Shown in pieces: positions 557-38,130 of a stretch of DNA of 38,823 nt. Position numbers and translations under genes: made by a program. The notes under the pieces were generated by a model. That model did no database searches and was not told the origin of the DNA. It was given only the letters and a program-made list of their open reading frames with translations. Where the stretch lies: the sequence record NC_047927.1, one strand, 5' to 3'. How positions within the stretch are numbered: the first letter of the stretch is position 1; each line of letters opens with the position of its first letter. This DNA comes from Escherichia phage YZ1.

Positions 557-593
557 TTGACAAGATGTACCGACTTAAAGTAGTATGTACCAC
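557..593 (+). promoter_or_regulatory. Host sigma70-type early promoter (T7 A3-like): -35 TTGACA, 18-nt spacer, -10 TAGTAT
   Basis: TTGACA at 557-562 and TAGTAT at 581-586; the flanking sequence (GTAGACAGCCTGATAAGTC upstream, GTACCACAT downstream, GCTCTTTAACAATCTGG further on) resembles the T7 early promoter region as I remember it. Confidence 0.6.
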
Positions 594-716
594 ATCAACA
601 CGAAACAACGGTGACGACCAACACTGAAATGGTCTACCTGAAGTCCTCTGACTGAAGGGAATGCTCTTTAACAATCTGGATAAACTCTTAATGTGCGCCG
701 ATAGCGACTAACTACA

Positions 717-777: not shown

Positions 778-1302
778 ATGAAACTGATAGGCAAAGGCAC
801 GTTCACTAAGTGCTACCTGAAGGACTGCGGGAAGCGTGTAATTCTGGTCTCTTCAGACCCAATCAAGGAGTGTATGGCGTGGGGATGGTTCCCTGAGTCT
901 CCACTGTTCCCTGAAGTCAAGATGATTGAGGTGGGCACGTATGAGATGGACTACATGCCACCAACACGAGGACTCAAGGCGCATTTAGATGACGACCAGT
1001 GGCAACTCTATCAGGTGCTGCGAGATTGCTTCTCACGGTCTCCGGTATTCTCTCGACCTGCTGACCTGTATCACAAGTGGTACGAGATATTCCAAGCTGC
1101 ACACGACAGGTCTGAGACCGAGACTGTGCGGGAAGGTCTGATGGATGTACTGATGGCGCTGGACGCTTGCGCTAACTTCGGGTCTGACATTCAGTTTGAG
1201 ATAAGCCCACGAAATGTACGGGCTGTGAACGGCAAGCTGATACTAGTGGATTGTTTCTTCCTTGTGTCCAAGCTGCAAGAGGTGAGGGCGTCAAGATGGT
1301 AA
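778..1302 (+). CDS. gp0.7-like protein kinase-domain protein (174 aa, minimal, lacks the T7 C-terminal host shut-off domain)
   Basis: Glycine-rich loop LIGKGTFTKCY near the N-terminus and a C-terminal segment EISPRNVRAVNGKLILVDCFF that aligns with the catalytic/activation segment of T7 gp0.7 ([23 protein letters not shown], from memory). First gene after the early promoter. Confidence 0.5.
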   Translation: MKLIGKGTFTKCYLKDCGKRVILVSSDPIKECMAWGWFPESPLFPEVKMIEVGTYEMDYMPPTRGLKAHLDDDQWQLYQVLRDCFSRSPVFSRPADLYHKWYEIFQAAHDRSETETVREGLMDVLMALDACANFGSDIQFEISPRNVRAVNGKLILVDCFFLVSKLQEVRASRW

Positions 1303-12104: not shown

Positions 12105-14276
12105 ATGTTTGACCTTAAGAGTATCTGGGGTTCTGACATAGAGACCAACGGTCTCCTTGATACAGTCTCCCAGTTTCACTGTGGGGTCCTGATTAACGCC
12201 GAGTCGAATGAGACCCTTAAGTATGGGGTAGCTCCGATGGTCGGTATCGTCGGTGGCTTCAAAGAGTATGTACAGAAGGTGGAAGAGATTGCCGCATCAC
12301 CTGATGGTATGCTGGTATTCCACAACGGTATCAACTATGACGTCCCGTCTATTGACAAGCTGAAGCGTCTGTACTGTGGGAAACGCTTTAACTTCCCGAA
12401 ACACAAGATGATTGATACCTTGGTGCTGGGACGCTTGATGTATCCAAACATTAAGTTCTCAGACATGGGCGCAGTGAAAGCTGGTCGTCTGCCACCTAAG
12501 ATGATGGGACGCCAGTCTCTTGAGGCTTGGGGCTATCGTCTCGGTGAGATGAAAGGTGAGTACAAACACGATTACGTTGCCAAGTGCAAGGCTGAAGGTA
12601 TCGAATATAAGGCTGGGGACGAATGGTTGTTCCCATCTCAGGAGATGCTAGACTATAACGTTCAAGACGTTGTGGTCACACTGGCGTTGTTCAAGAAGTT
12701 CCTGACTGACAAGTATTACTTCCAGTCTGAACAGTTCGCTTTCGACCAGATTTATGCGTTGCGTCTGGAACATGATGCTGCGTGGACCTGTGCGAAGATG
12801 GAACGTAACGGCTATCCGATGAACACCGAGATGGTCGAAGGCTTATATCGTGAACTCACCGTCAAACGTGCAGAGTTGTTGGACAAGCTGCGTTCGACTT
12901 TCGGCAGCTGGTACGCACCAAAGGGAGGCAAGGAGTTCTTCAAGCACCCACGGACAGGCAAGGACCTTCCGAAGTATCCGCGAGTCGTGTATCCTAAGGT
13001 CGGGTCAGTATTCAAGAAGCCGAAGAACAAAGCTCAACGCTTAGGTCTGGAACCTTGCGAGTTCGACTCACGAGACACGATGGAGGGAGCGCCGTTCACA
13101 CCTATCACTTACGTTGAGTTTAATCCGGGAAGCGGAGACCACTTAGCGAAAGTCTTGATGGAGCGTGGTTGGGAGCCTGTGGACTTCACTGACACTGGGA
13201 AACCTGTAGTCGATGACGAGACGTTAGAACACGTTAAGCTACCAGACGCAGAGGCTCAGGCTTGCGTAGAGCTGGTCCGTGAGTATCTGGTAGTCCAGAA
13301 GCGCATAGGTCAGGCGGCTGAAGGTAAGAACGCATGGTTGAAACTTGTAGGTCCAGACGGACGTATGCACGGTTCAATCAACCCATGCGGTGCAGTAACA
13401 GGACGTGCGACTCATAGTTCACCAAACATGGCTCAGGTCCCTGCTAACGGTGCTCCGTATGGTGAGATTTGCCGTGGTGCTTTCGGTGCAGCTTGGAACA
13501 AGACGGATGGTAAGCCAGACCCTTGGATTCAAGTGGGTGTGGATGCTTCAGGTCTTGAGCTTCGTTGTCTGGGGAACCGAGCAGCTCCGTTTGATGGTGG
13601 TGCCTATGCGAAGACTGTGGTCGAAGGTGACATCCACTGGGCCAACGCAGTAAACGCTGGTTTAGCACCTAACGTCCCACGCGATAAATCGAACCACGAC
13701 CATGATGCTTTCCGTAACAACGCTAAGACGTTCATCTATGCGTTCCTGTATGGTGCAGGGGCCGCTAAGATTGGACTGATAGTCGGCGGTGGTAAGAAGG
13801 AAGGTTCAGCTCTCATGAAGAAATTCATTGAGGGTACACCAGCCATCAAGGACCTCAGGGAAGCTGTGAGTAATACGTTAATCTCAGACTCTAAGTGGGT
13901 GGACGGAGAGAACATCGTCAAGTGGAAACGCCGTTGGTTGCGTGGACTTGATGGTCGCCGTATCCACATCCGGTCGCCACACTCAGCACTGAACGCCTTA
14001 CTTCAAGGTGACGGTGCGGTAGTCTGTAAGCACTGGATTGTCGAGACTGAACGTATGCTTGAAGAGGCAGGGTATGTTCACGGCTGGGAGGGAGACTTTG
14101 CGTACATGGCTTGGGTGCATGATGAATTGCAGATTGCGTGTCGTACTCAGGAGATTGCCGAAGAAGTCGTCAAGATTGCGCAACTTGCTATGCGTAAGGT
14201 GGGTGAGTTCTATAACTTTAAATGTGTCCTTGATACGGAGGGTAAGATTGGACCAACGTGGAAAGAATGCCATTGA
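12105..14276 (+). CDS. DNA polymerase, family A (T7 gene 5 homolog, 723 aa from ATG 12105)
   Basis: Exonuclease motif DIETNGL, polymerase motifs NPCGAVTGRATHSSPN, AKTFIYAFLYGAG, YMAWVHDE, C-terminal GPTWKECH; colinear with T7 gp5. Start set at ATG 12105 (SD ACGGAGGA) rather than the track GTG 12069, which lies inside the upstream hairpin. Confidence 0.96.
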   Translation: MFDLKSIWGSDIETNGLLDTVSQFHCGVLINAESNETLKYGVAPMVGIVGGFKEYVQKVEEIAASPDGMLVFHNGINYDVPSIDKLKRLYCGKRFNFPKHKMIDTLVLGRLMYPNIKFSDMGAVKAGRLPPKMMGRQSLEAWGYRLGEMKGEYKHDYVAKCKAEGIEYKAGDEWLFPSQEMLDYNVQDVVVTLALFKKFLTDKYYFQSEQFAFDQIYALRLEHDAAWTCAKMERNGYPMNTEMVEGLYRELTVKRAELLDKLRSTFGSWYAPKGGKEFFKHPRTGKDLPKYPRVVYPKVGSVFKKPKNKAQRLGLEPCEFDSRDTMEGAPFTPITYVEFNPGSGDHLAKVLMERGWEPVDFTDTGKPVVDDETLEHVKLPDAEAQACVELVREYLVVQKRIGQAAEGKNAWLKLVGPDGRMHGSINPCGAVTGRATHSSPNMAQVPANGAPYGEICRGAFGAAWNKTDGKPDPWIQVGVDASGLELRCLGNRAAPFDGGAYAKTVVEGDIHWANAVNAGLAPNVPRDKSNHDHDAFRNNAKTFIYAFLYGAGAAKIGLIVGGGKKEGSALMKKFIEGTPAIKDLREAVSNTLISDSKWVDGENIVKWKRRWLRGLDGRRIHIRSPHSALNALLQGDGAVVCKHWIVETERMLEEAGYVHGWEGDFAYMAWVHDELQIACRTQEIAEEVVKIAQLAMRKVGEFYNFKCVLDTEGKIGPTWKECH

Positions 14277-14664
14277 CGGAAAGTCCCAGCACTTCACTGG
14301 TGCTGCTAGTGAGTTATATGTAAGCTATAGACTGACAGCCAAAGGGCATCAAGTATTCCTCCCAGCATTCACGCAGTCAAAGGCAGACTTGGTGGTCGAT
14401 ATAGACGGGACCCTTACGAGGGTTCAGGTCAAGACCGGAACGAAGCTGAAGAACTGTAATAGCATACAGGTAAGACTGGGAGGATGCGGTAAGCCAACTT
14501 ACAGTCCTGGAGACATAGACCTACTAGCGGTTGTCTATCAGGATTTACTCTGGCTTATACCGTTCACTGAAGAGGTTAGAGTCAAGACCTCTATGTGTAT
14601 AAACTTAACGTCTGACAAGAAGTACGGACAATTTAAACAGGAGAAGACTAATGGCTATTACTAA
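14248..14664 (+). CDS. Putative nuclease-like protein, PD-(D/E)xK / Hjc-like motif arrangement (about 138 aa, proposed TTG start)
   Basis: Open frame continues past the polymerase stop with no ATG; TTG at 14248 has GGAGGG 5 nt upstream. Motifs ASELYV ... KADLVVDIDG ... VQVKTG resemble the E...D...(E/Q)xK layout. Contains AGA/AGG Arg codons, unlike the core genes. Confidence 0.35.
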   Translation: MDQRGKNAIDGKSQHFTGAASELYVSYRLTAKGHQVFLPAFTQSKADLVVDIDGTLTRVQVKTGTKLKNCNSIQVRLGGCGKPTYSPGDIDLLAVVYQDLLWLIPFTEEVRVKTSMCINLTSDKKYGQFKQEKTNGYY

Positions 14665-32084: not shown

Positions 32085-35003
32085 ATGGCTAGAACAACTA
32101 TCACTCAGTTCCCCGCTGGAAGCTCTCAGTACCGAATTGAGTTCGACTATCTGGCACGACCTTTCGTCGTTGTTACGTTGGTTAACAGTTCAAACATGAC
32201 TCAGAACAAGGTCTTAGACGTAGGTAGTGACTATCGGTTCATGAGCGCAACGGTCATTGAGATTCTTATCGACCAGACGGGATTTGATATCGTGCGCATC
32301 CAGCGTCAGACTGACACAGACTTGGTGGTATCCTTCCGCGATGGTTCGGTTCTGACCGCTAACGACCTGACTAACGCTGAACTTCAAGCCATTCATATAG
32401 CTGAAGAGGGCCGAGAACAGACACTCATAACGGCGGCTGAGTTTGTATTGGCTGCACAGCGTTATTCTGAGGCTTCAGCAAGTTCAGCAGCAGAAGCAAG
32501 GGCCGCAAGGGACAGGGTGGAGCTATTAATGTCTTCTGGCCTATACGGATATGTACTGGTAACATCTTTCCAGACAGGAGCAACACTTACTCTTCCTAAC
32601 CAAGCACTTAAGGACGAGTCGACTGGCGAATACTTCAGGTGGGACGGTTCTCTTCCTAAGTCTGTTCCAGCAGGCTCCACCCCTAGCTCTTCCGGTGGTG
32701 TCGGACCTGGGGCGTGGGTTAGCGTAGGTGATGCATCGTTACGCGGCAACCTTAAGAGCGAGGACAGCGACAAGGGTGATTCCCTGTATACCGTGAAGCA
32801 GCCGTACGTAGGCTCTATCGGTCTTACCGGAAAGGCTAACAACGCACTGTTCATTAACGTGAAGCAGTTTGGTGCTGTAGGCTCTGGCAGCTATCACCCT
32901 CTGTCTGAACGGTATGGAACCCTTGCTGAGGCTCAGGCTCATTACCCATTTGTCACAAGTCTTGCTGAGTCTATAGACTATGCTGCGTGGCAGGCGGCTC
33001 TCAACACTGGTAAGGTTGTGTATGGGACCGATAACGCCTACGTGATTACCCAGACCCTGCTGCCAGTATCTGGTGGTGGGATTATTGGACTCGGCGTCAA
33101 CAAGTGGGTGTCTGGTTTCACAGCGACCTTTAACCCTGACCTTGAGACCGGTACTACATTCCTCATGTATGGCTCTGGTCCGAAGAACTACACGCTTGAC
33201 TGCGTGTCAAACATGGACGTGTCAGGAGGGGTAGTTGCAAACCCATCGGCCTCGGACCCTTATACAGCCACCTCTCCAGCCCCATCGTATGACCTTCTGG
33301 ACTTCACCAACGGCGATGCCAGTGGTACTACACGAGCTACCTTGAAGCCCTTCTCAGTGGCAATCCTAATGCCTGAGACTGGTTGTGTGCGCTTGGAGAA
33401 CTTCCGCATCGTACCATACTTCAACGGACTTGATGGGTACAAGAGCCTAACTAATACTGGTCTTGGAGATAACTGGGACGTAGGCATCTGGTCAAGGGCA
33501 TCGTTTGGCAACGAGTATCGAAACCTACAGGTTGTAGGCTACTGGCGTATGACCGCGCTGCTGAAGACAAACGTTCCACTGTCTGGCACTATCGCGGCTC
33601 AAGGCGAGGATGAGAACTACTACCACTGCCGCTTCCAAGGATATAAAGGCGTTTCAATACGTGCGCACGACGTGTTCAGGATAACGGCTGTTACTGACAC
33701 TACGATAGAAATACCGTGGTCAGCCAGTCATACATTCAACGCAACTGGCACTCTGCGAGCTAGAGGTCATAACTTCGTGTACACGTCTCTGTCAGTATCT
33801 GGCGACAAGCTCATCTTTAACGGTGTGTCTAACGCTTCGTTGGCGACCGTTGGTTCGACCATACGTCGCAACGATATTGACAACTTCGGCATAGCGGGTA
33901 CTCAGTTCTTTGACTGCTACATTACCAGCCTTTACCATCACACCAGACTAATGTCCACCTCCCAATATCTCGACCAGCCTTTCAGTAGGCCGTCTGAGTG
34001 CATGGAGGTTTCTGGTGAGCCTGTTAGGGGTGTACAGGTTCATGGCAGTACAATACAGGGGTGGGACGACGTTCTTCTTCACCTGCATGATTGTGGGAAC
34101 ATGAACTTTTATAGCACCTACTTTGAGAGTCAGCCCCCTTACGAGACAATTGGTGGCGGTAATGCCTCATTTGGCTATGGTGCTCGCATGCTTGCTTCAA
34201 GACAATCAACAAGTTCCCTACCTTATGCTGCCGGGAATACTCGCGTATTGCGGATGATTGGCTGCACCGAGGGGAACGGGGTTGATTGGGGTCCAGAATA
34301 TACAACTTACACAGGCGGTCGATACACAACTACTGGCGGTGTATTCAATCCCAGAGAGAGCTATATAGACCATAAAGCGTTCCCTGAGCAGGCCGATAGT
34401 GAAGTGCGTCTGGTATCGGAGAAAGGGAACGTTAGGGTGTCACCTTATACCGGAGGTTTTGTGTATGTTGGTCCTGCTTCAGGGGATGCCAACTTACAGT
34501 CAGCCTCAGGGTCTTTGAACCTGCTGTCTGGTCTTAGGGTACGATTTGGTACACCTTCGGCATACTGGGCCTTGATTGATTCCGCTAAGTTTGCCCCTAC
34601 AACAGACAACGTGTTGGCTATTGGTCAGCCGTCTAAAAGGGTGTCAGTAGTCTATGCTGGTACAGGTACAATCAATACTTCAGATGAAAGACTTAAGGTT
34701 CGCGATGGGATAACTAGCGAGGAGCGGGCCGCTGCTTTAGAGATTAAGGCTAACATCTGGAAGTACCGCTTCTCGGACTCGCTAGAGCGGAAGAAGGATG
34801 GTGCCAGACTCCACTTCGGTGTTGGGGCGCAGACTGTAGGTGAAATATTGCGCAAGCATGGACTGGACCCTGATTGCTACGCCTTCTGGTGCTACGATGA
34901 GTGGCCCGACAGTACCGATGAGGATGGGGCGTTTACTCCGGCTGGGAACCGTTATGGCATCAGGTATGACGAGCTGCTGTGCTTCTTGATGGCAGCGATT
35001 TAA
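32085..35003 (+). CDS. Tail fiber / tailspike protein (972 aa): T7 gp17-like N-terminal adaptor, large central domain, C-terminal chaperone-like domain
   Basis: N-terminal 150 aa align with the T7 gp17 particle-binding domain (FDYLARPFVVVTL, DYRF, FRDGSVLTANDL, IAEE.R); the central region begins with a pectate-lyase-like FGAVG motif; the C-terminus carries SDERLK ... HFGVGAQTVGEIL, typical of the intramolecular chaperone (peptidase S74-type) domain. Confidence 0.92.
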   Translation: MARTTITQFPAGSSQYRIEFDYLARPFVVVTLVNSSNMTQNKVLDVGSDYRFMSATVIEILIDQTGFDIVRIQRQTDTDLVVSFRDGSVLTANDLTNAELQAIHIAEEGREQTLITAAEFVLAAQRYSEASASSAAEARAARDRVELLMSSGLYGYVLVTSFQTGATLTLPNQALKDESTGEYFRWDGSLPKSVPAGSTPSSSGGVGPGAWVSVGDASLRGNLKSEDSDKGDSLYTVKQPYVGSIGLTGKANNALFINVKQFGAVGSGSYHPLSERYGTLAEAQAHYPFVTSLAESIDYAAWQAALNTGKVVYGTDNAYVITQTLLPVSGGGIIGLGVNKWVSGFTATFNPDLETGTTFLMYGSGPKNYTLDCVSNMDVSGGVVANPSASDPYTATSPAPSYDLLDFTNGDASGTTRATLKPFSVAILMPETGCVRLENFRIVPYFNGLDGYKSLTNTGLGDNWDVGIWSRASFGNEYRNLQVVGYWRMTALLKTNVPLSGTIAAQGEDENYYHCRFQGYKGVSIRAHDVFRITAVTDTTIEIPWSASHTFNATGTLRARGHNFVYTSLSVSGDKLIFNGVSNASLATVGSTIRRNDIDNFGIAGTQFFDCYITSLYHHTRLMSTSQYLDQPFSRPSECMEVSGEPVRGVQVHGSTIQGWDDVLLHLHDCGNMNFYSTYFESQPPYETIGGGNASFGYGARMLASRQSTSSLPYAAGNTRVLRMIGCTEGNGVDWGPEYTTYTGGRYTTTGGVFNPRESYIDHKAFPEQADSEVRLVSEKGNVRVSPYTGGFVYVGPASGDANLQSASGSLNLLSGLRVRFGTPSAYWALIDSAKFAPTTDNVLAIGQPSKRVSVVYAGTGTINTSDERLKVRDGITSEERAAALEIKANIWKYRFSDSLERKKDGARLHFGVGAQTVGEILRKHGLDPDCYAFWCYDEWPDSTDEDGAFTPAGNRYGIRYDELLCFLMAAI

Positions 35004-35018
35004 TTAACAGGAGGCTTT

Positions 35019-35213
35019 ATGATTGAGTTAGACTTTAAGAACGAAGTCCTTAAGGCCTCCCCTATCGTTGGAACCGCTGCGGCTGATGGTGCCAGTCGGT
35101 TCTTCTTTGGACTCACACTGAACGAATGGTTCTACGTTGCAGCTATTGCGTACACCGTTGTCCAGATTGGTGTTCTGGTATACAAAACGATTAAAGGGGG
35201 AGGAAAGTCATGA
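35019..35213 (+). CDS. Class II holin (T7 gene 17.5 homolog, 64 aa)
   Basis: KASPIVGTAAADGASRFFFGLTLNEWFYVAAIAYTVVQIG is near-identical to T7 gp17.5. Confidence 0.9.
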   Translation: MIELDFKNEVLKASPIVGTAAADGASRFFFGLTLNEWFYVAAIAYTVVQIGVLVYKTIKGGGKS

Positions 35214-35473
35214 CACAAATGGACTTAGAGAAGTTCTTACTGATGCTGGATACGGAGCGTGCTCGCCTCATGTTGCAAGACTTGAGGGATGACACTAAGC
35301 GCTCGCCACAGCTCTACAACGCCATTGAGAAGCTACTTGCTCGTCACAACTTTGTGTTAAGCAAGGTGTCTGTGGACGAGAAGACACTGGCTGATATGGA
35401 GGCCCTGAACGCAGAGTACGATAAGGTGCTTTCAGCGACTGAGGATAATGACACCGGGTATGGTGTTCAATAA
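35210..35473 (+). CDS. Small terminase subunit / DNA maturase A (T7 gene 18 homolog, 87 aa)
   Basis: LLMLDT, RSPQLYNAIEKLLARH conserved with T7 gp18; lies before the large terminase as in T7. Confidence 0.85.
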   Translation: MTQMDLEKFLLMLDTERARLMLQDLRDDTKRSPQLYNAIEKLLARHNFVLSKVSVDEKTLADMEALNAEYDKVLSATEDNDTGYGVQ

Positions 35474-35504
35474 GTGTTAGACTCAAGGTCATCGTCAGGT
35501 GGCC
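35468..35504 (+). promoter_or_regulatory. Conserved hairpin copy 3 (putative RNase III site, T7 R18.5 position)
   Basis: TAGACTCAAGGTCAT-loop-GTGGCCTTTATGATTA directly after gene 18. Confidence 0.6.
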
Positions 35505-35535
35505 TTTATGATTAACACTAACTAGTGGAGGTTAT

Positions 35536-35937
35536 ATGGAAGGCGCATATATAAGTGGAGGATACTGGAAGGTTACTCGCAATGGTAAGGTGCATGGAGT
35601 TCACAGATTACTATGGGAGGAAGCCAACGGTCCTATCCCAGAGGGTTACGTCATAGACCACATTGACAGGAACCCTATGAATAACGAGCTGTCAAACCTT
35701 AGGTGTATACCCAAAGGAGCAAACAAGGCTAACACAGAATCATCTAGGGAACTACCTAAGGGTGTATACTCTAGGCTTGCTAAACGTCAAGGTGTGACTG
35801 TATATTATGGTGACATTAGGATTGGTGGTAAGAAAGAAACTCACGCTCCTACTAAGAATCTGATGGAAGTCGTGGAATGGGCTAAGTCAACTCACAGCAG
35901 AATGCTGAAGGAGACATATGGTATTTCAAATGTTTAA
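35536..35937 (+). CDS. HNH endonuclease (133 aa), likely a free-standing homing endonuclease
   Basis: HNH signature in HRLLWEEANGPIPEGYVIDHIDRNPMNNELSNLRCIP; codon usage rich in AGG/AGA and lower GC than the flanking core genes; no counterpart at this position in T7. Confidence 0.85.
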   Translation: MEGAYISGGYWKVTRNGKVHGVHRLLWEEANGPIPEGYVIDHIDRNPMNNELSNLRCIPKGANKANTESSRELPKGVYSRLAKRQGVTVYYGDIRIGGKKETHAPTKNLMEVVEWAKSTHSRMLKETYGISNV

Positions 35938-36370
35938 GAGAGCGGCTCCGTGGTTACTTGCAGCAGTGATGTTTGCTGGTGGCTACCACACCGCTAACAA
36001 TAAGTGGGAGGCTAAGGTAAATGCAGAATACACCTCGAATCTTAAGGCATCGGAGGATACAAGACTTGCTGTCCAAGCTGAAGTCAACAAAGTGTCCAAA
36101 CGGTTCCAGGACGAAATGTCCTCGTTGGAAGGCAGCACTGATAGGATTATTGCTGACCTTAAGTCTGACAATAAGCGGCTGCTCATCCGAGTCAAACCAA
36201 CGAGTGGAACCACGCAAAGTGACGGTCGATGCGTCATTGATGGTAGAGCCGAACTTGACGAACGAGATGCTAAACGTCTTATCGCCATCGGAGTGAAAGG
36301 AGACAAGTGGATTAAGGCCCTTCAAGACACTGTGAGAGCCTTACAGCAAGAGAAGGAGGTGAAACCTTGA
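35918..36370 (+). CDS. Rz-like i-spanin (T7 gene 18.5 homolog, 150 aa; start may be the second ATG at 35930)
   Basis: N-terminal TM segment, then [18 protein letters not shown] ... [16 protein letters not shown] ... [17 protein letters not shown], colinear with T7 gp18.5. Confidence 0.85.
36021..36296 (+). CDS. Rz1-like o-spanin lipoprotein embedded in the +1 frame of Rz (T7 gene 18.7 homolog, 91 aa)
   Basis: [21 protein letters not shown] with lipobox cysteine, then [18 protein letters not shown], matching T7 gp18.7 as remembered; wholly inside the Rz ORF. Confidence 0.7.
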   Translation: MQNTPRILRHRRIQDLLSKLKSTKCPNGSRTKCPRWKAALIGLLLTLSLTISGCSSESNQRVEPRKVTVDASLMVEPNLTNEMLNVLSPSE

Positions 36371-38130
36371 GTAAAGACTTAGTGGCGCGTCAGGCGCTAA
36401 TGACAGCACGTATGAAGGAAGACTTCGTGTTCTTCCTGTTCGTCCTGTGGAAAGCTCTGTCACTCCCGGTCCCGACTCGCTGTCAGATTGACATGGCGAA
36501 GAAACTATCGGCTGGTGACAACAGGCGTTTCATCCTACAGGCGTTCCGTGGTATCGGGAAGTCCTTCATTACGTGTGCATTCGTGGTCTGGAAACTATGG
36601 AACAACCCAGACCTGAAGTTCATGATTGTGTCGGCCTCAAAGGAACGAGCCGATGCGAACTCCATCTTCATCAAGCGAATCATCGACCTCATGCCTCAGC
36701 TTCAGGAACTCAAACCTAAGCAGGGACAGCGAGATGCGGTTATCAGCTTCGACGTTGGGCCAGCCAAACCAGACCACTCACCCTCGGTTAAGTCCGTTGG
36801 TATCACTGGTCAGTTGACTGGTAGTCGTGCTGACATCCTGATTGCCGATGACGTGGAGGTTCCGAACAACTCAGCGACTCAGTCTGCACGAGACCGTCTG
36901 TCAGAGCTTGTGAAAGAGTTCGACGCTATCCTGAAGCCGGGAGGTACAATCATCTATCTGGGTACTCCTCAGAACGAGATGACCTTGTATCGTGAGCTGG
37001 AAGGCCGTGGATACACCACTACCATCTGGCCTGCTCGTTATCCACGCGACAGGAAGGACTGGCAGTCTTACGGCGACCGTCTGGCACCGATGCTTCAGGC
37101 AGAGCTTGAAGATGACCCTGAGTCCTTCTACTGGCGTCCGACCGATGAAGTACGATTCGATGATACGGACCTGAAGGAACGTGAGCTGTCCTATGGTAAA
37201 GCTGGCTTCTCTCTACAGTTCATGCTTAACCCTAACCTGAGTGATGCTGAGAAGTACCCTCTGAAGCTCCGTGACCTTATCGTAGCCGACTTGGACCCAG
37301 CGTCTAGCCCAATGGTATACCAATGGCTTCCTAACCCTCAGAACAAGCGTGAGGACGTTCCTAACGTTGGACTCATGGGTGACTCATACCACACGTATCA
37401 GACTGTAGGTTCTGCCTTCAGTTCGTACACCCAGAAGATTCTAGTCATTGACCCTAGTGGTCGTGGTAAGGATGAAACTGGTTATGCGGTACTGTACCAG
37501 CTCAACGGCTACATCTTCGCTATGGAAGTTGGCGGTATGCGAGGTGGCTATGAAGACTCTACGCTGGAAGCCTTGGCTAAGATTGGTCGTAAGTGGAAGG
37601 TCAACGAATACGTCATTGAGGGTAACTTCGGTGATGGTATGTACCTTGAGCTATTCAAGCCTGTAGCTTCCCGTATTCATCCTGCTGCTGTAACTGAAGT
37701 GAAGAGTAAGGGTCAGAAGGAACTCCGCATCTGTGACGTTCTGGAGCCTATCATGGGGTCTCACCGACTTATCGTTAACGCTGCTGCTATCGTCCAAGAT
37801 TACCAGTCTGCCTCTGATAAGGATGGTGTTCGTAATCCTATCTACTCTCTCTTCTACCAGATGACACGCATCTCTCGTGAACGTGGAGCATTGGCACACG
37901 ATGACCGACTTGATGCGCTGGCTATCGGTGTACAGTTCTTCGTTGAGTCTATGGCGAAGGATGCCAACAAAGGCGAACGTGAAGTCACTGAGGAGTGGCT
38001 GGAGGAACAGATGGAGAACCCACGGAAAGGCTTCGAGTCCATCCGCACTGAGTTCTGGGACAATGGGGTCCGGGTAACTCACGATACGGACGACGAGCTG
38101 GGGCTAGGGTCCTACGTTACGTTCCACTAG
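36367..38130 (+). CDS. Large terminase subunit / DNA maturase B (T7 gene 19 homolog, 587 aa; apparent TTG start)
   Basis: Colinear near-identity with T7 gp19 ([41 protein letters not shown] Walker [76 protein letters not shown]). TTG at 36367 has AAGGAGG 7 nt upstream; the first ATG is 11 codons in. Confidence 0.95.

Follow-up and report, generated by a model that had tools for sequence, protein, structure and literature searches.

A probable free-standing HNH homing endonuclease gene at the gene 18/18.5 junction of the T7-like Escherichia phage YZ1

The closest structurally characterized relative of the HNH protein considered here is the nicking homing endonuclease I-HmuI of Bacillus phage SPO1 (PDB 1U3E), the only entry of the PDB related to it by sequence (phmmer E=0.002; E=3e-11 with a profile built from 19 homologues). 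I-HmuI is a 174-residue enzyme encoded inside a group I intron, and its C-terminal DNA-binding modules are helical and of the HTH type, whereas the protein of Escherichia phage YZ1 has 133 residues, is the product of a free-standing gene lying between two others, and ends in what is predicted to be an AP2-like β-sheet domain. The same order of domains, i.e. an N-terminal HNH nuclease followed by a C-terminal AP2 domain, is found in the HNH-AP2 homing endonucleases of phages, cyanobacteria and protists (Magnani et al. 2004), and the combination of HNH_3 with AP2 is a recognized homing endonuclease architecture (PMC5714182, PMC10448857). The 'IPA-HNH' genes of vibriophage ICP1 (Barth et al. 2023, PMC10448857) likewise adjoin essential genes, including that for the terminase, and exchange boundaries; they belong to other phage lineages and occupy other insertion sites than the YZ1 gene, and their products are too divergent for the HNH_3 Pfam profile (PMC10448857), which the YZ1 protein matches strongly. 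Nucleases with an HNH motif are also encoded beside the terminase genes in HK97, where gp74-type proteins are of His-Me group 1 (PF01844), accompany another terminase family and are conserved and essential in their own phages, none of which applies to the YZ1 gene.

Nearer to hand, a sister HNH_3 gene occupies the gene 18.5/19 junction, one gene downstream of the site in YZ1, in Hafnia phage Ca (ORF48), Citrobacter phage CR44b, the loci L005 (2793..3230), L010 and L016, and, as a second copy, in BUCT788 (L003, 1859..2242), which carries both endonuclease genes, bracketing Rz. The sister gene is absent from YZ1. Its product (127-145 residues in all) has an N-terminal extension of ~25-35 residues and is 39-53% identical to the YZ1 protein over the HNH core (HNH_3 E=7e-21), and the gene overlaps the essential gene downstream of it, as the YZ1 gene does. 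In Hafnia phage Ca the sister gene was reported as a 397-bp presence/absence polymorphism within one lysate (PMC8861465). Copies of the YZ1 gene itself are already annotated, with the same junction and the same overlap with Rz, as a 'homing endonuclease' in TM1 (QNH91757.1) and BUCT788 (XTB81138.1), both at 92% amino acid identity, and as an 'HNH endonuclease' in IME321 (YP_009806253.1) and Sekstaphage-1 (WNV46664.1), at 75-76%. The gene is thus of a known and ordinary mobile kind; what is mildly notable is that its cassette does away with a conserved leader and provides the neighbouring lysis gene with a new start, and that it occupies the same site in five lineages.

The window, by which we mean the whole 38,823-nucleotide sequence analysed (NC_047927.1), is the 38.8-kb genome of a T7-like phage of the genus Kayfunavirus (K1F-like). 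The endonuclease ORF (35536..35937, plus strand; 133 residues from an ATG start) begins four bases past a GGAGG ribosome-binding site (35527..35531, plus strand), at which the left recombination joint also lies, and at its other end overlaps the start of Rz by 20 nt. An initial annotation, made from the sequence alone, had placed the ORF between gene 18 and gene 18.5, and profile searches bear out both neighbours: the gene on the left (35210..35473, plus strand) encodes the small terminase subunit (PF11123, E=3e-12; phrog_1351, E=1e-34), and that on the right (35918..36370, plus strand) the Rz-like i-spanin (phrog_1327, E=1e-58). The holin gene (17.5) is at 35019..35213, and the large terminase gene (19) ends at 38130. 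Gene 18 is outside the mobile element, its product being 97-100% identical in amino acid sequence across relatives with and without the endonuclease gene. A further ORF (36021..36296, plus strand), embedded in gene 18.5 in another frame, carries the lipobox LTISGC and corresponds to the o-spanin expected here (18.7/Rz1 equivalent), which the upstream insertion leaves untouched. Searches with tblastn revealed no paralogue of the endonuclease gene elsewhere in the window; the two to four matching places per record seen in relatives are other HNH genes, which YZ1 does not have. A scan for sigma-70 promoters and terminators around the gene gave nothing above shuffled sequence.

The left edge of the site is formed by a hairpin (35474..35518, plus strand) of two stems separated by an internal loop, the lower of which pairs GUGUUA with UAACAC in the centroid fold. 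The hairpin is conserved across T7, T3, KP32 and K1F-type loci, four of its pairs have compensatory changes (RNAalifold, 12 loci), and the T3 record labels the same element RNase III site R18.5; fold, conservation and record agree with the initial annotation that the ORF lies just 3' of an R18.5-type hairpin. In the hairpin loop and upper stem, the window (35490..35500) reads TCGTCAGG, a variant that it has in common with L010, a locus without the endonuclease gene at 18/18.5, while K1F, TM1 and BUCT788 have TTACTATATGTAG. The 10 nt that follow this L010-like loop in the window are of the K1F type, which implies mosaicism at the scale of tens of bases. One IMG/VR Kayfunavirus contig (L022, 2264..2746) has a different insert at 18/18.5, with a 160-residue ORF lying before the R18.5 hairpin, for which no match was found in Pfam or PHROG. 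Over 34900..36600 the only structured RNA candidate from Rfam was nuoG, which at 18 bits fell short of its threshold of 33 and was rejected.

The HNH signature noted initially, for which an HMM search had been proposed as the check, is confirmed by profile matches. The stretch containing VIDHIDRNPMNNELSNLR matches Pfam HNH_3 (PF13392) over residues 21-63 (35596..35724, plus strand) with E=3.3e-18 and 65.5 bits, the curated cut-off being 24.8 bits, and the ORF also matches 15 PHROG families, 11 of which are annotated as HNH endonuclease. The residues of the ββα-metal motif are intact, i.e. the D-H general base, the structural asparagine and the metal-binding asparagine: D41, H42, N54 and N63 do not vary across the 19-22 homologues compared (alignments A2 and A3), and they align, at an offset of 33, with D74, H75, N87 and N96 of I-HmuI, whose catalytic roles are reportedly those set out by Shen et al. 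in 2004. The AlphaFold model of the protein has a mean pLDDT of 93, and in it residues 76-128 (35761..35919, plus strand), with three β strands followed by one helix, are predicted to form an AP2-like domain. With its HNH_3 nuclease core and predicted DNA-binding module fused in one chain, the protein belongs with the HNH_3/I-HmuI-type homing endonucleases (His-Me finger group 2).

The gene is sporadic among close and collinear relatives, present or absent at one defined site. Among the 135 records with a match of at least 90% nucleotide identity to the region, the YZ1 allele was found only in TM1 (MT808983), BUCT788 and PDP351P3, at 92-93% amino acid identity, and in K1F, vB_EcoP_F, PE3-1, ST31 and more than 100 others both flanks match and the gene is absent. 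The initial annotation had named an orthologue in all relatives as an observation that would count against it; instead, orthologues occur in ~7 of the 221 phage records with a Kayfunavirus-type gp18 (at least 90% identity to that of the window), so that ~97% lack the gene. At the wider scale of T7-type gp18, 60 of 1267 records have an orthologue at 60% or more amino acid identity, and the endonuclease gene occurs at the 18/18.5 junction in none of 23 IMG/VR loci whose gene 18 is of the Kayfunavirus type. It is absent from this junction in K1F, Baskent_phicoli_1 and phiHAO1-1, the last being the top-ranked match in a search with 24.8 kb of the window, and also from T7, T3 and KP32.

The occupied site nevertheless recurs well beyond the close relatives of YZ1, as orthologues lie at exactly the same position in five Studiervirinae lineages: in Przondovirus (IME321), Teetrevirus (Sekstaphage-1), Helsettvirus (Yersinia phage fPS-53), a record without genus-level classification (Enterobacter phage vB_EclP_26), and Kayfunavirus, where AN24P4 carries a second, divergent allele. 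The placement is shared in detail, the gene beginning a few bases past the hairpin and its last ~20 nt lying over a rebuilt Rz start. The same element is thus found at a homologous site in diverged genomes, and the conserved sequence of the empty sites could be its target. Homologues were found in 22 protein clusters. In Yersinia phages fPS-53, fPS-85, fPS-89 and fPS-54-ocr the orthologue is frameshifted, the kind of decay that is expected of a selfish nuclease gene late in its life cycle; in fPS-53 (L041, 701..1100) the annotated CDS has 84 residues and the remainder appears as a second tblastn piece.

Alignment of the junction with relatives lacking the gene, the first check proposed, defined sharp edges on both sides (alignment A1). 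On the left, the window can be aligned with K1F across the hairpin as far as CTAGTGGAGG; on the right, the match begins again at TTTAAGAG(A/G)GCGGCTCCGTGG, within codon five or six of Rz. The segment between, which has no counterpart in empty sites, is the endonuclease cassette (35532..35932, plus strand). The initial idea of a gene that has invaded a conserved locus stands, but not as a clean insertion between intact genes: ~51 bp of K1F (CGACTCTACGTGAAAATCTGATAAACCGGGAGGGCAACTATGCTCGAATT) are absent from the window and, more generally, occupied sites lack ~50-65 bp made up of conserved 18.5 leader and the opening codons of Rz. As conserved leader sequence is missing, the cassette is a replacement rather than a pure insertion. 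In empty sites (K1F, T7, T3, KP32 and 20 IMG/VR loci were compared) the conserved leader consists of an invariant CGTGAAATCTGA, a ribosome-binding site, and then ATGCTNGAA(T/A)TT; the CGTGAAATCTGA and ATGCTNGAA blocks are absent from all occupied sites, and no copy of the empty-site motif was found in the window at up to two mismatches. The left joint of the window retains the K1F-type CTAGTGGAGG, with CTAGT kept ahead of GGAGG, while TM1 and BUCT788 have TAAGGAGGT, as do the copies from other genera.

The non-coding leader of gene 18.5 is itself strikingly conserved from T7 to K1F and KP32 (alignment A4, columns 66-125; ~1020..1075 in the K1F locus, L002, and ~575..620 in that of T7, L045). 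A short and apparently co-varying stem ahead of CGTGAAATCTGA can be seen by eye (CGTAG...CTACG, CGAGA...TCTCG, GTGGAG...CTCTAC) and was not called by RNAalifold.

What the cassette removes at the start of Rz, it also rebuilds. Within the 3' coding end of the endonuclease gene, in another frame, there is an AAGGAG ribosome-binding site (35908..35913, plus strand) followed by the ATG of Rz at 35918, and the start codon and first ~5 codons of Rz (MVFQMF) derive from the cassette, the N terminus in K1F being MLEFLKRAAPW. A Shine-Dalgarno-like stretch (GGAGG, AAGGAG or GGGGGA) followed by TATGG was found at this position in all eight occupied loci compared, which represent the five lineages. In TM1 (L001, MT808983), at ~1500, a TGG codon of Rz is changed to TGA and the gene is annotated as two short ORFs, which reflects either a sequencing error or a broken i-spanin.

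Compared with AN24P4, the window is identical in gp18 at the amino acid level (100%; 92% in DNA) but reaches only 74% in the endonuclease (69% in DNA) and 54% in Rz (71% in DNA). This divergence implies at least two endonuclease lineages at the site within one genus, and the contrast between gp18 on the one hand and the endonuclease and Rz on the other places a boundary of genetic exchange at the left edge of the gene, a pattern described for phage nuclease genes by Barth et al. (PMC10448857). The endonuclease DNA of the window is 7-12% diverged from that of TM1 and BUCT788, so its acquisition is not recent. Identity profiles showed no co-conversion tract, the flanks resembling relatives that lack the gene as closely as those that carry it; the best match in the 24.8-kb search is only ~95% identical, a distance that does not allow fine-scale comparison. 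Copies from other genera are 65-75% identical in DNA, with flanks at 62-86%, so that they are about as diverged as their surroundings and frequent recent transfer between genera is not demonstrated by them. We also considered horizontal transfer on the basis of amino acid identity (75% for the endonuclease against 45-48% for the flanks) and rejected the argument, because the contrast is weak in DNA (71-75% against 62-73%).

The composition of the gene sets it apart from the rest of the genome. The count of seven AGG/AGA to two CGN arginine codons given initially is exact and lies beyond chance, the 29 other genes of the window having 68 AGR and 491 CGN codons (Fisher p=1.6e-5), and the remark that the ORF is AT-richer than its neighbours is likewise sustained: its GC content of 43.5% is within the lowest 1.35% of all 402-nt windows, and its GC3 (0.406 against 0.556; p=2e-4 on resampling 133 codons) is lower than that of every other gene in the window. 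The TM1, BUCT788 and Sekstaphage-1 copies share both the low GC and the preference for AGR, which are weaker in those of the Klebsiella and Enterobacter phages. AGR richness alone is not diagnostic, because the gp1.2-like dGTPase inhibitor gene of the same genome (5447..5698, plus strand; phrog_6515, E=8e-37) has seven AGR to three CGN codons. Elsewhere in the genome, the end of the DNA polymerase gene is overlapped by an ORF (14074..14664, plus strand) that matches the PD-(D/E)XK endonuclease profile PF11645 (E=2.7e-10) and phrog_5018, and that has 12 AGR to five CGN codons and 46% GC. Of 219 related phage records, only five cover at least 80% of its region, which suggests that YZ1 has another nuclease gene of sporadic occurrence that may be mobile.

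Taken with the HNH profile matches, the sporadic presence and the use of the same junction in other genera support the initial reading of a free-standing homing endonuclease, and we consider it likely that we are dealing with a free-standing gene for an HNH-AP2 homing endonuclease of the I-HmuI/HNH_3 group, present as a selfish insert at the 18/18.5 junction. The foreign composition, the history incongruent with that of gp18, the decay in Yersinia phages and the variable presence of the sister gene in Hafnia phage Ca point the same way. Literature searches for biochemical work on the gene in T7-like, Przondovirus and Kayfunavirus phages yielded genome descriptions only, and no cleavage or homing data for the protein or its orthologues. 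From the features of the locus we infer the following course of events. The gene would be transcribed as one of the late genes, with its own GGAGG, just past the R18.5 processing hairpin, directing translation. On co-infection with a relative lacking the gene, the AP2-like domain would bind the empty junction, and the bound endonuclease would nick or cut it; by analogy with I-HmuI it would probably act as a monomer whose single active site nicks one strand, the nick then becoming a break on replication. The most likely target would be the conserved leader of 18.5 together with the start region (CGTGAAATCTGA ... GGAGG ... ATGCTNGAATTT), and carriers would be immune, since every occupied allele is without that stretch. 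The recombination system of the phage would repair the break from the carrier genome, so that the gene is copied in, and the 3' end of the cassette would bring with it the substitute ribosome-binding site and start codon of Rz, leaving lysis undisturbed.

Because the leader is erased in carriers, it is the most economical candidate for the recognition site, and the comparison of empty and occupied alleles suggests that the replaced 18.5 leader is probably the target of the endonuclease. I-HmuI, however, is said, in work attributed to Shen et al. in 2004, to cut intron-containing and intron-less alleles alike, and a sequence that is missing from carriers thus need not mark the target. It may be, as a bolder and tentative proposal that we regard as possible but on balance doubtful, that the endonuclease recognizes the near-invariant 18.5 leader (CGTGAAATCTGA plus the Rz start) and acts as a gene drive or exclusion weapon across Studiervirinae genera, its built-in Rz start being an evolved 'repair kit' that allows the gene to delete its own target while leaving lysis unharmed. 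If so, this would be a defined example in which a free-standing endonuclease gene removes the sequence that it recognizes and alters how an essential neighbour is translated.

The position of the gene beside those for the terminase, with gene 18 (small subunit) on one side and gene 19 (large subunit) on the other, had also led to the suggestion of a role in DNA packaging. On such a reading the protein would be an accessory nuclease like HK97 gp74 that cuts concatemers together with the neighbouring terminase subunits. There is precedent in the HK97-like phages, which cannot cleave cos without the HNH protein encoded next to their terminase genes (Kala et al. 2014, as relayed in PMC8861465 and PMC10448857), but the packaging HNH proteins are of group 1 (PF01844), whereas the YZ1 protein is of HNH_3/His-Me group 2, i.e. 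of the homing type (PMC5714182), and in Pfam only HNH_3 was matched at E≤0.1, with no match to the gp74-like PF01844 domain. Nor is the terminase of the right kind: gp19 matches only PF22530 (the T7 terminase RNaseH-like domain) and Terminase_6N, and is thus T7-type and not the Terminase_1 with which packaging HNH proteins are partnered (PMC8861465). The predicted AP2-like domain is typical of homing enzymes. The group-wide conservation expected of a packaging module was not found, the gene being absent from most relatives, including ~97% of the records with a Kayfunavirus-type gene 18; T7, T3, K1F and KP32 package normally without it, and Yersinia phages with frameshifted copies have still been isolated and sequenced. 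Family, terminase type and distribution all disfavour a role inferred from adjacency to the terminase genes, and we reject it as very improbable. The probability that the ORF is an intron- or intein-associated endonuclease, or else a chance ORF or annotation artefact, is negligible. T7-like phages with an HNH endonuclease encoded by a group I intron of the DNA polymerase gene are known, as are 'collaborative homing' arrangements (PMC10448857), but the YZ1 ORF lies between gene 18 and gene 18.5 and inside neither, and no intron family of Rfam matched 34900..36600 at E≤1; the strong profile matches and conservation in the 22 protein clusters exclude a chance ORF.

A more serious competitor, if still an unlikely one, is that the gene once encoded a homing endonuclease but has lost the ability to home, and that it serves as a weapon in competition between phages, attacking co-infecting relatives without being copied into them, or is kept as the sole supplier of the Rz start, which makes its precise loss difficult. 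With the ribosome-binding site and start codon of Rz in the cassette, its simple deletion would inactivate Rz, and neither a co-conversion tract nor a near-identical recent transfer was seen; moreover, bioinformatics alone cannot tell whether a nuclease gene is actively homing (PMC10448857). Against this, the motif residues do not vary among homologues, most copies retain an intact ORF, and the recurrence of the identical site in five lineages, together with two divergent alleles in Kayfunavirus, argues for repeated site-specific acquisition and not for passive retention. Exclusion and homing are, in addition, two compatible outcomes of the same cleavage.

A homing endonuclease gene at this site leaves current understanding of such enzymes unchanged, and the finding is of use chiefly in annotation. 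The protein is a compact candidate (133 residues, HNH plus predicted AP2) for a new site-specific nicking enzyme, the likely target of which is conserved across many coliphages and Klebsiella phages. In the engineering of K1F-like therapeutic phages the gene may be removed or ignored, provided that the Rz start is rebuilt. For annotation, the value of the assignment is that the gene should be described as a selfish accessory element, and not as a component of packaging or lysis. With the sister gene one position downstream, the 18-18.5-19 interval of T7-like phages emerges as a hot spot, both of mosaic exchange and of insertion by endonuclease genes.
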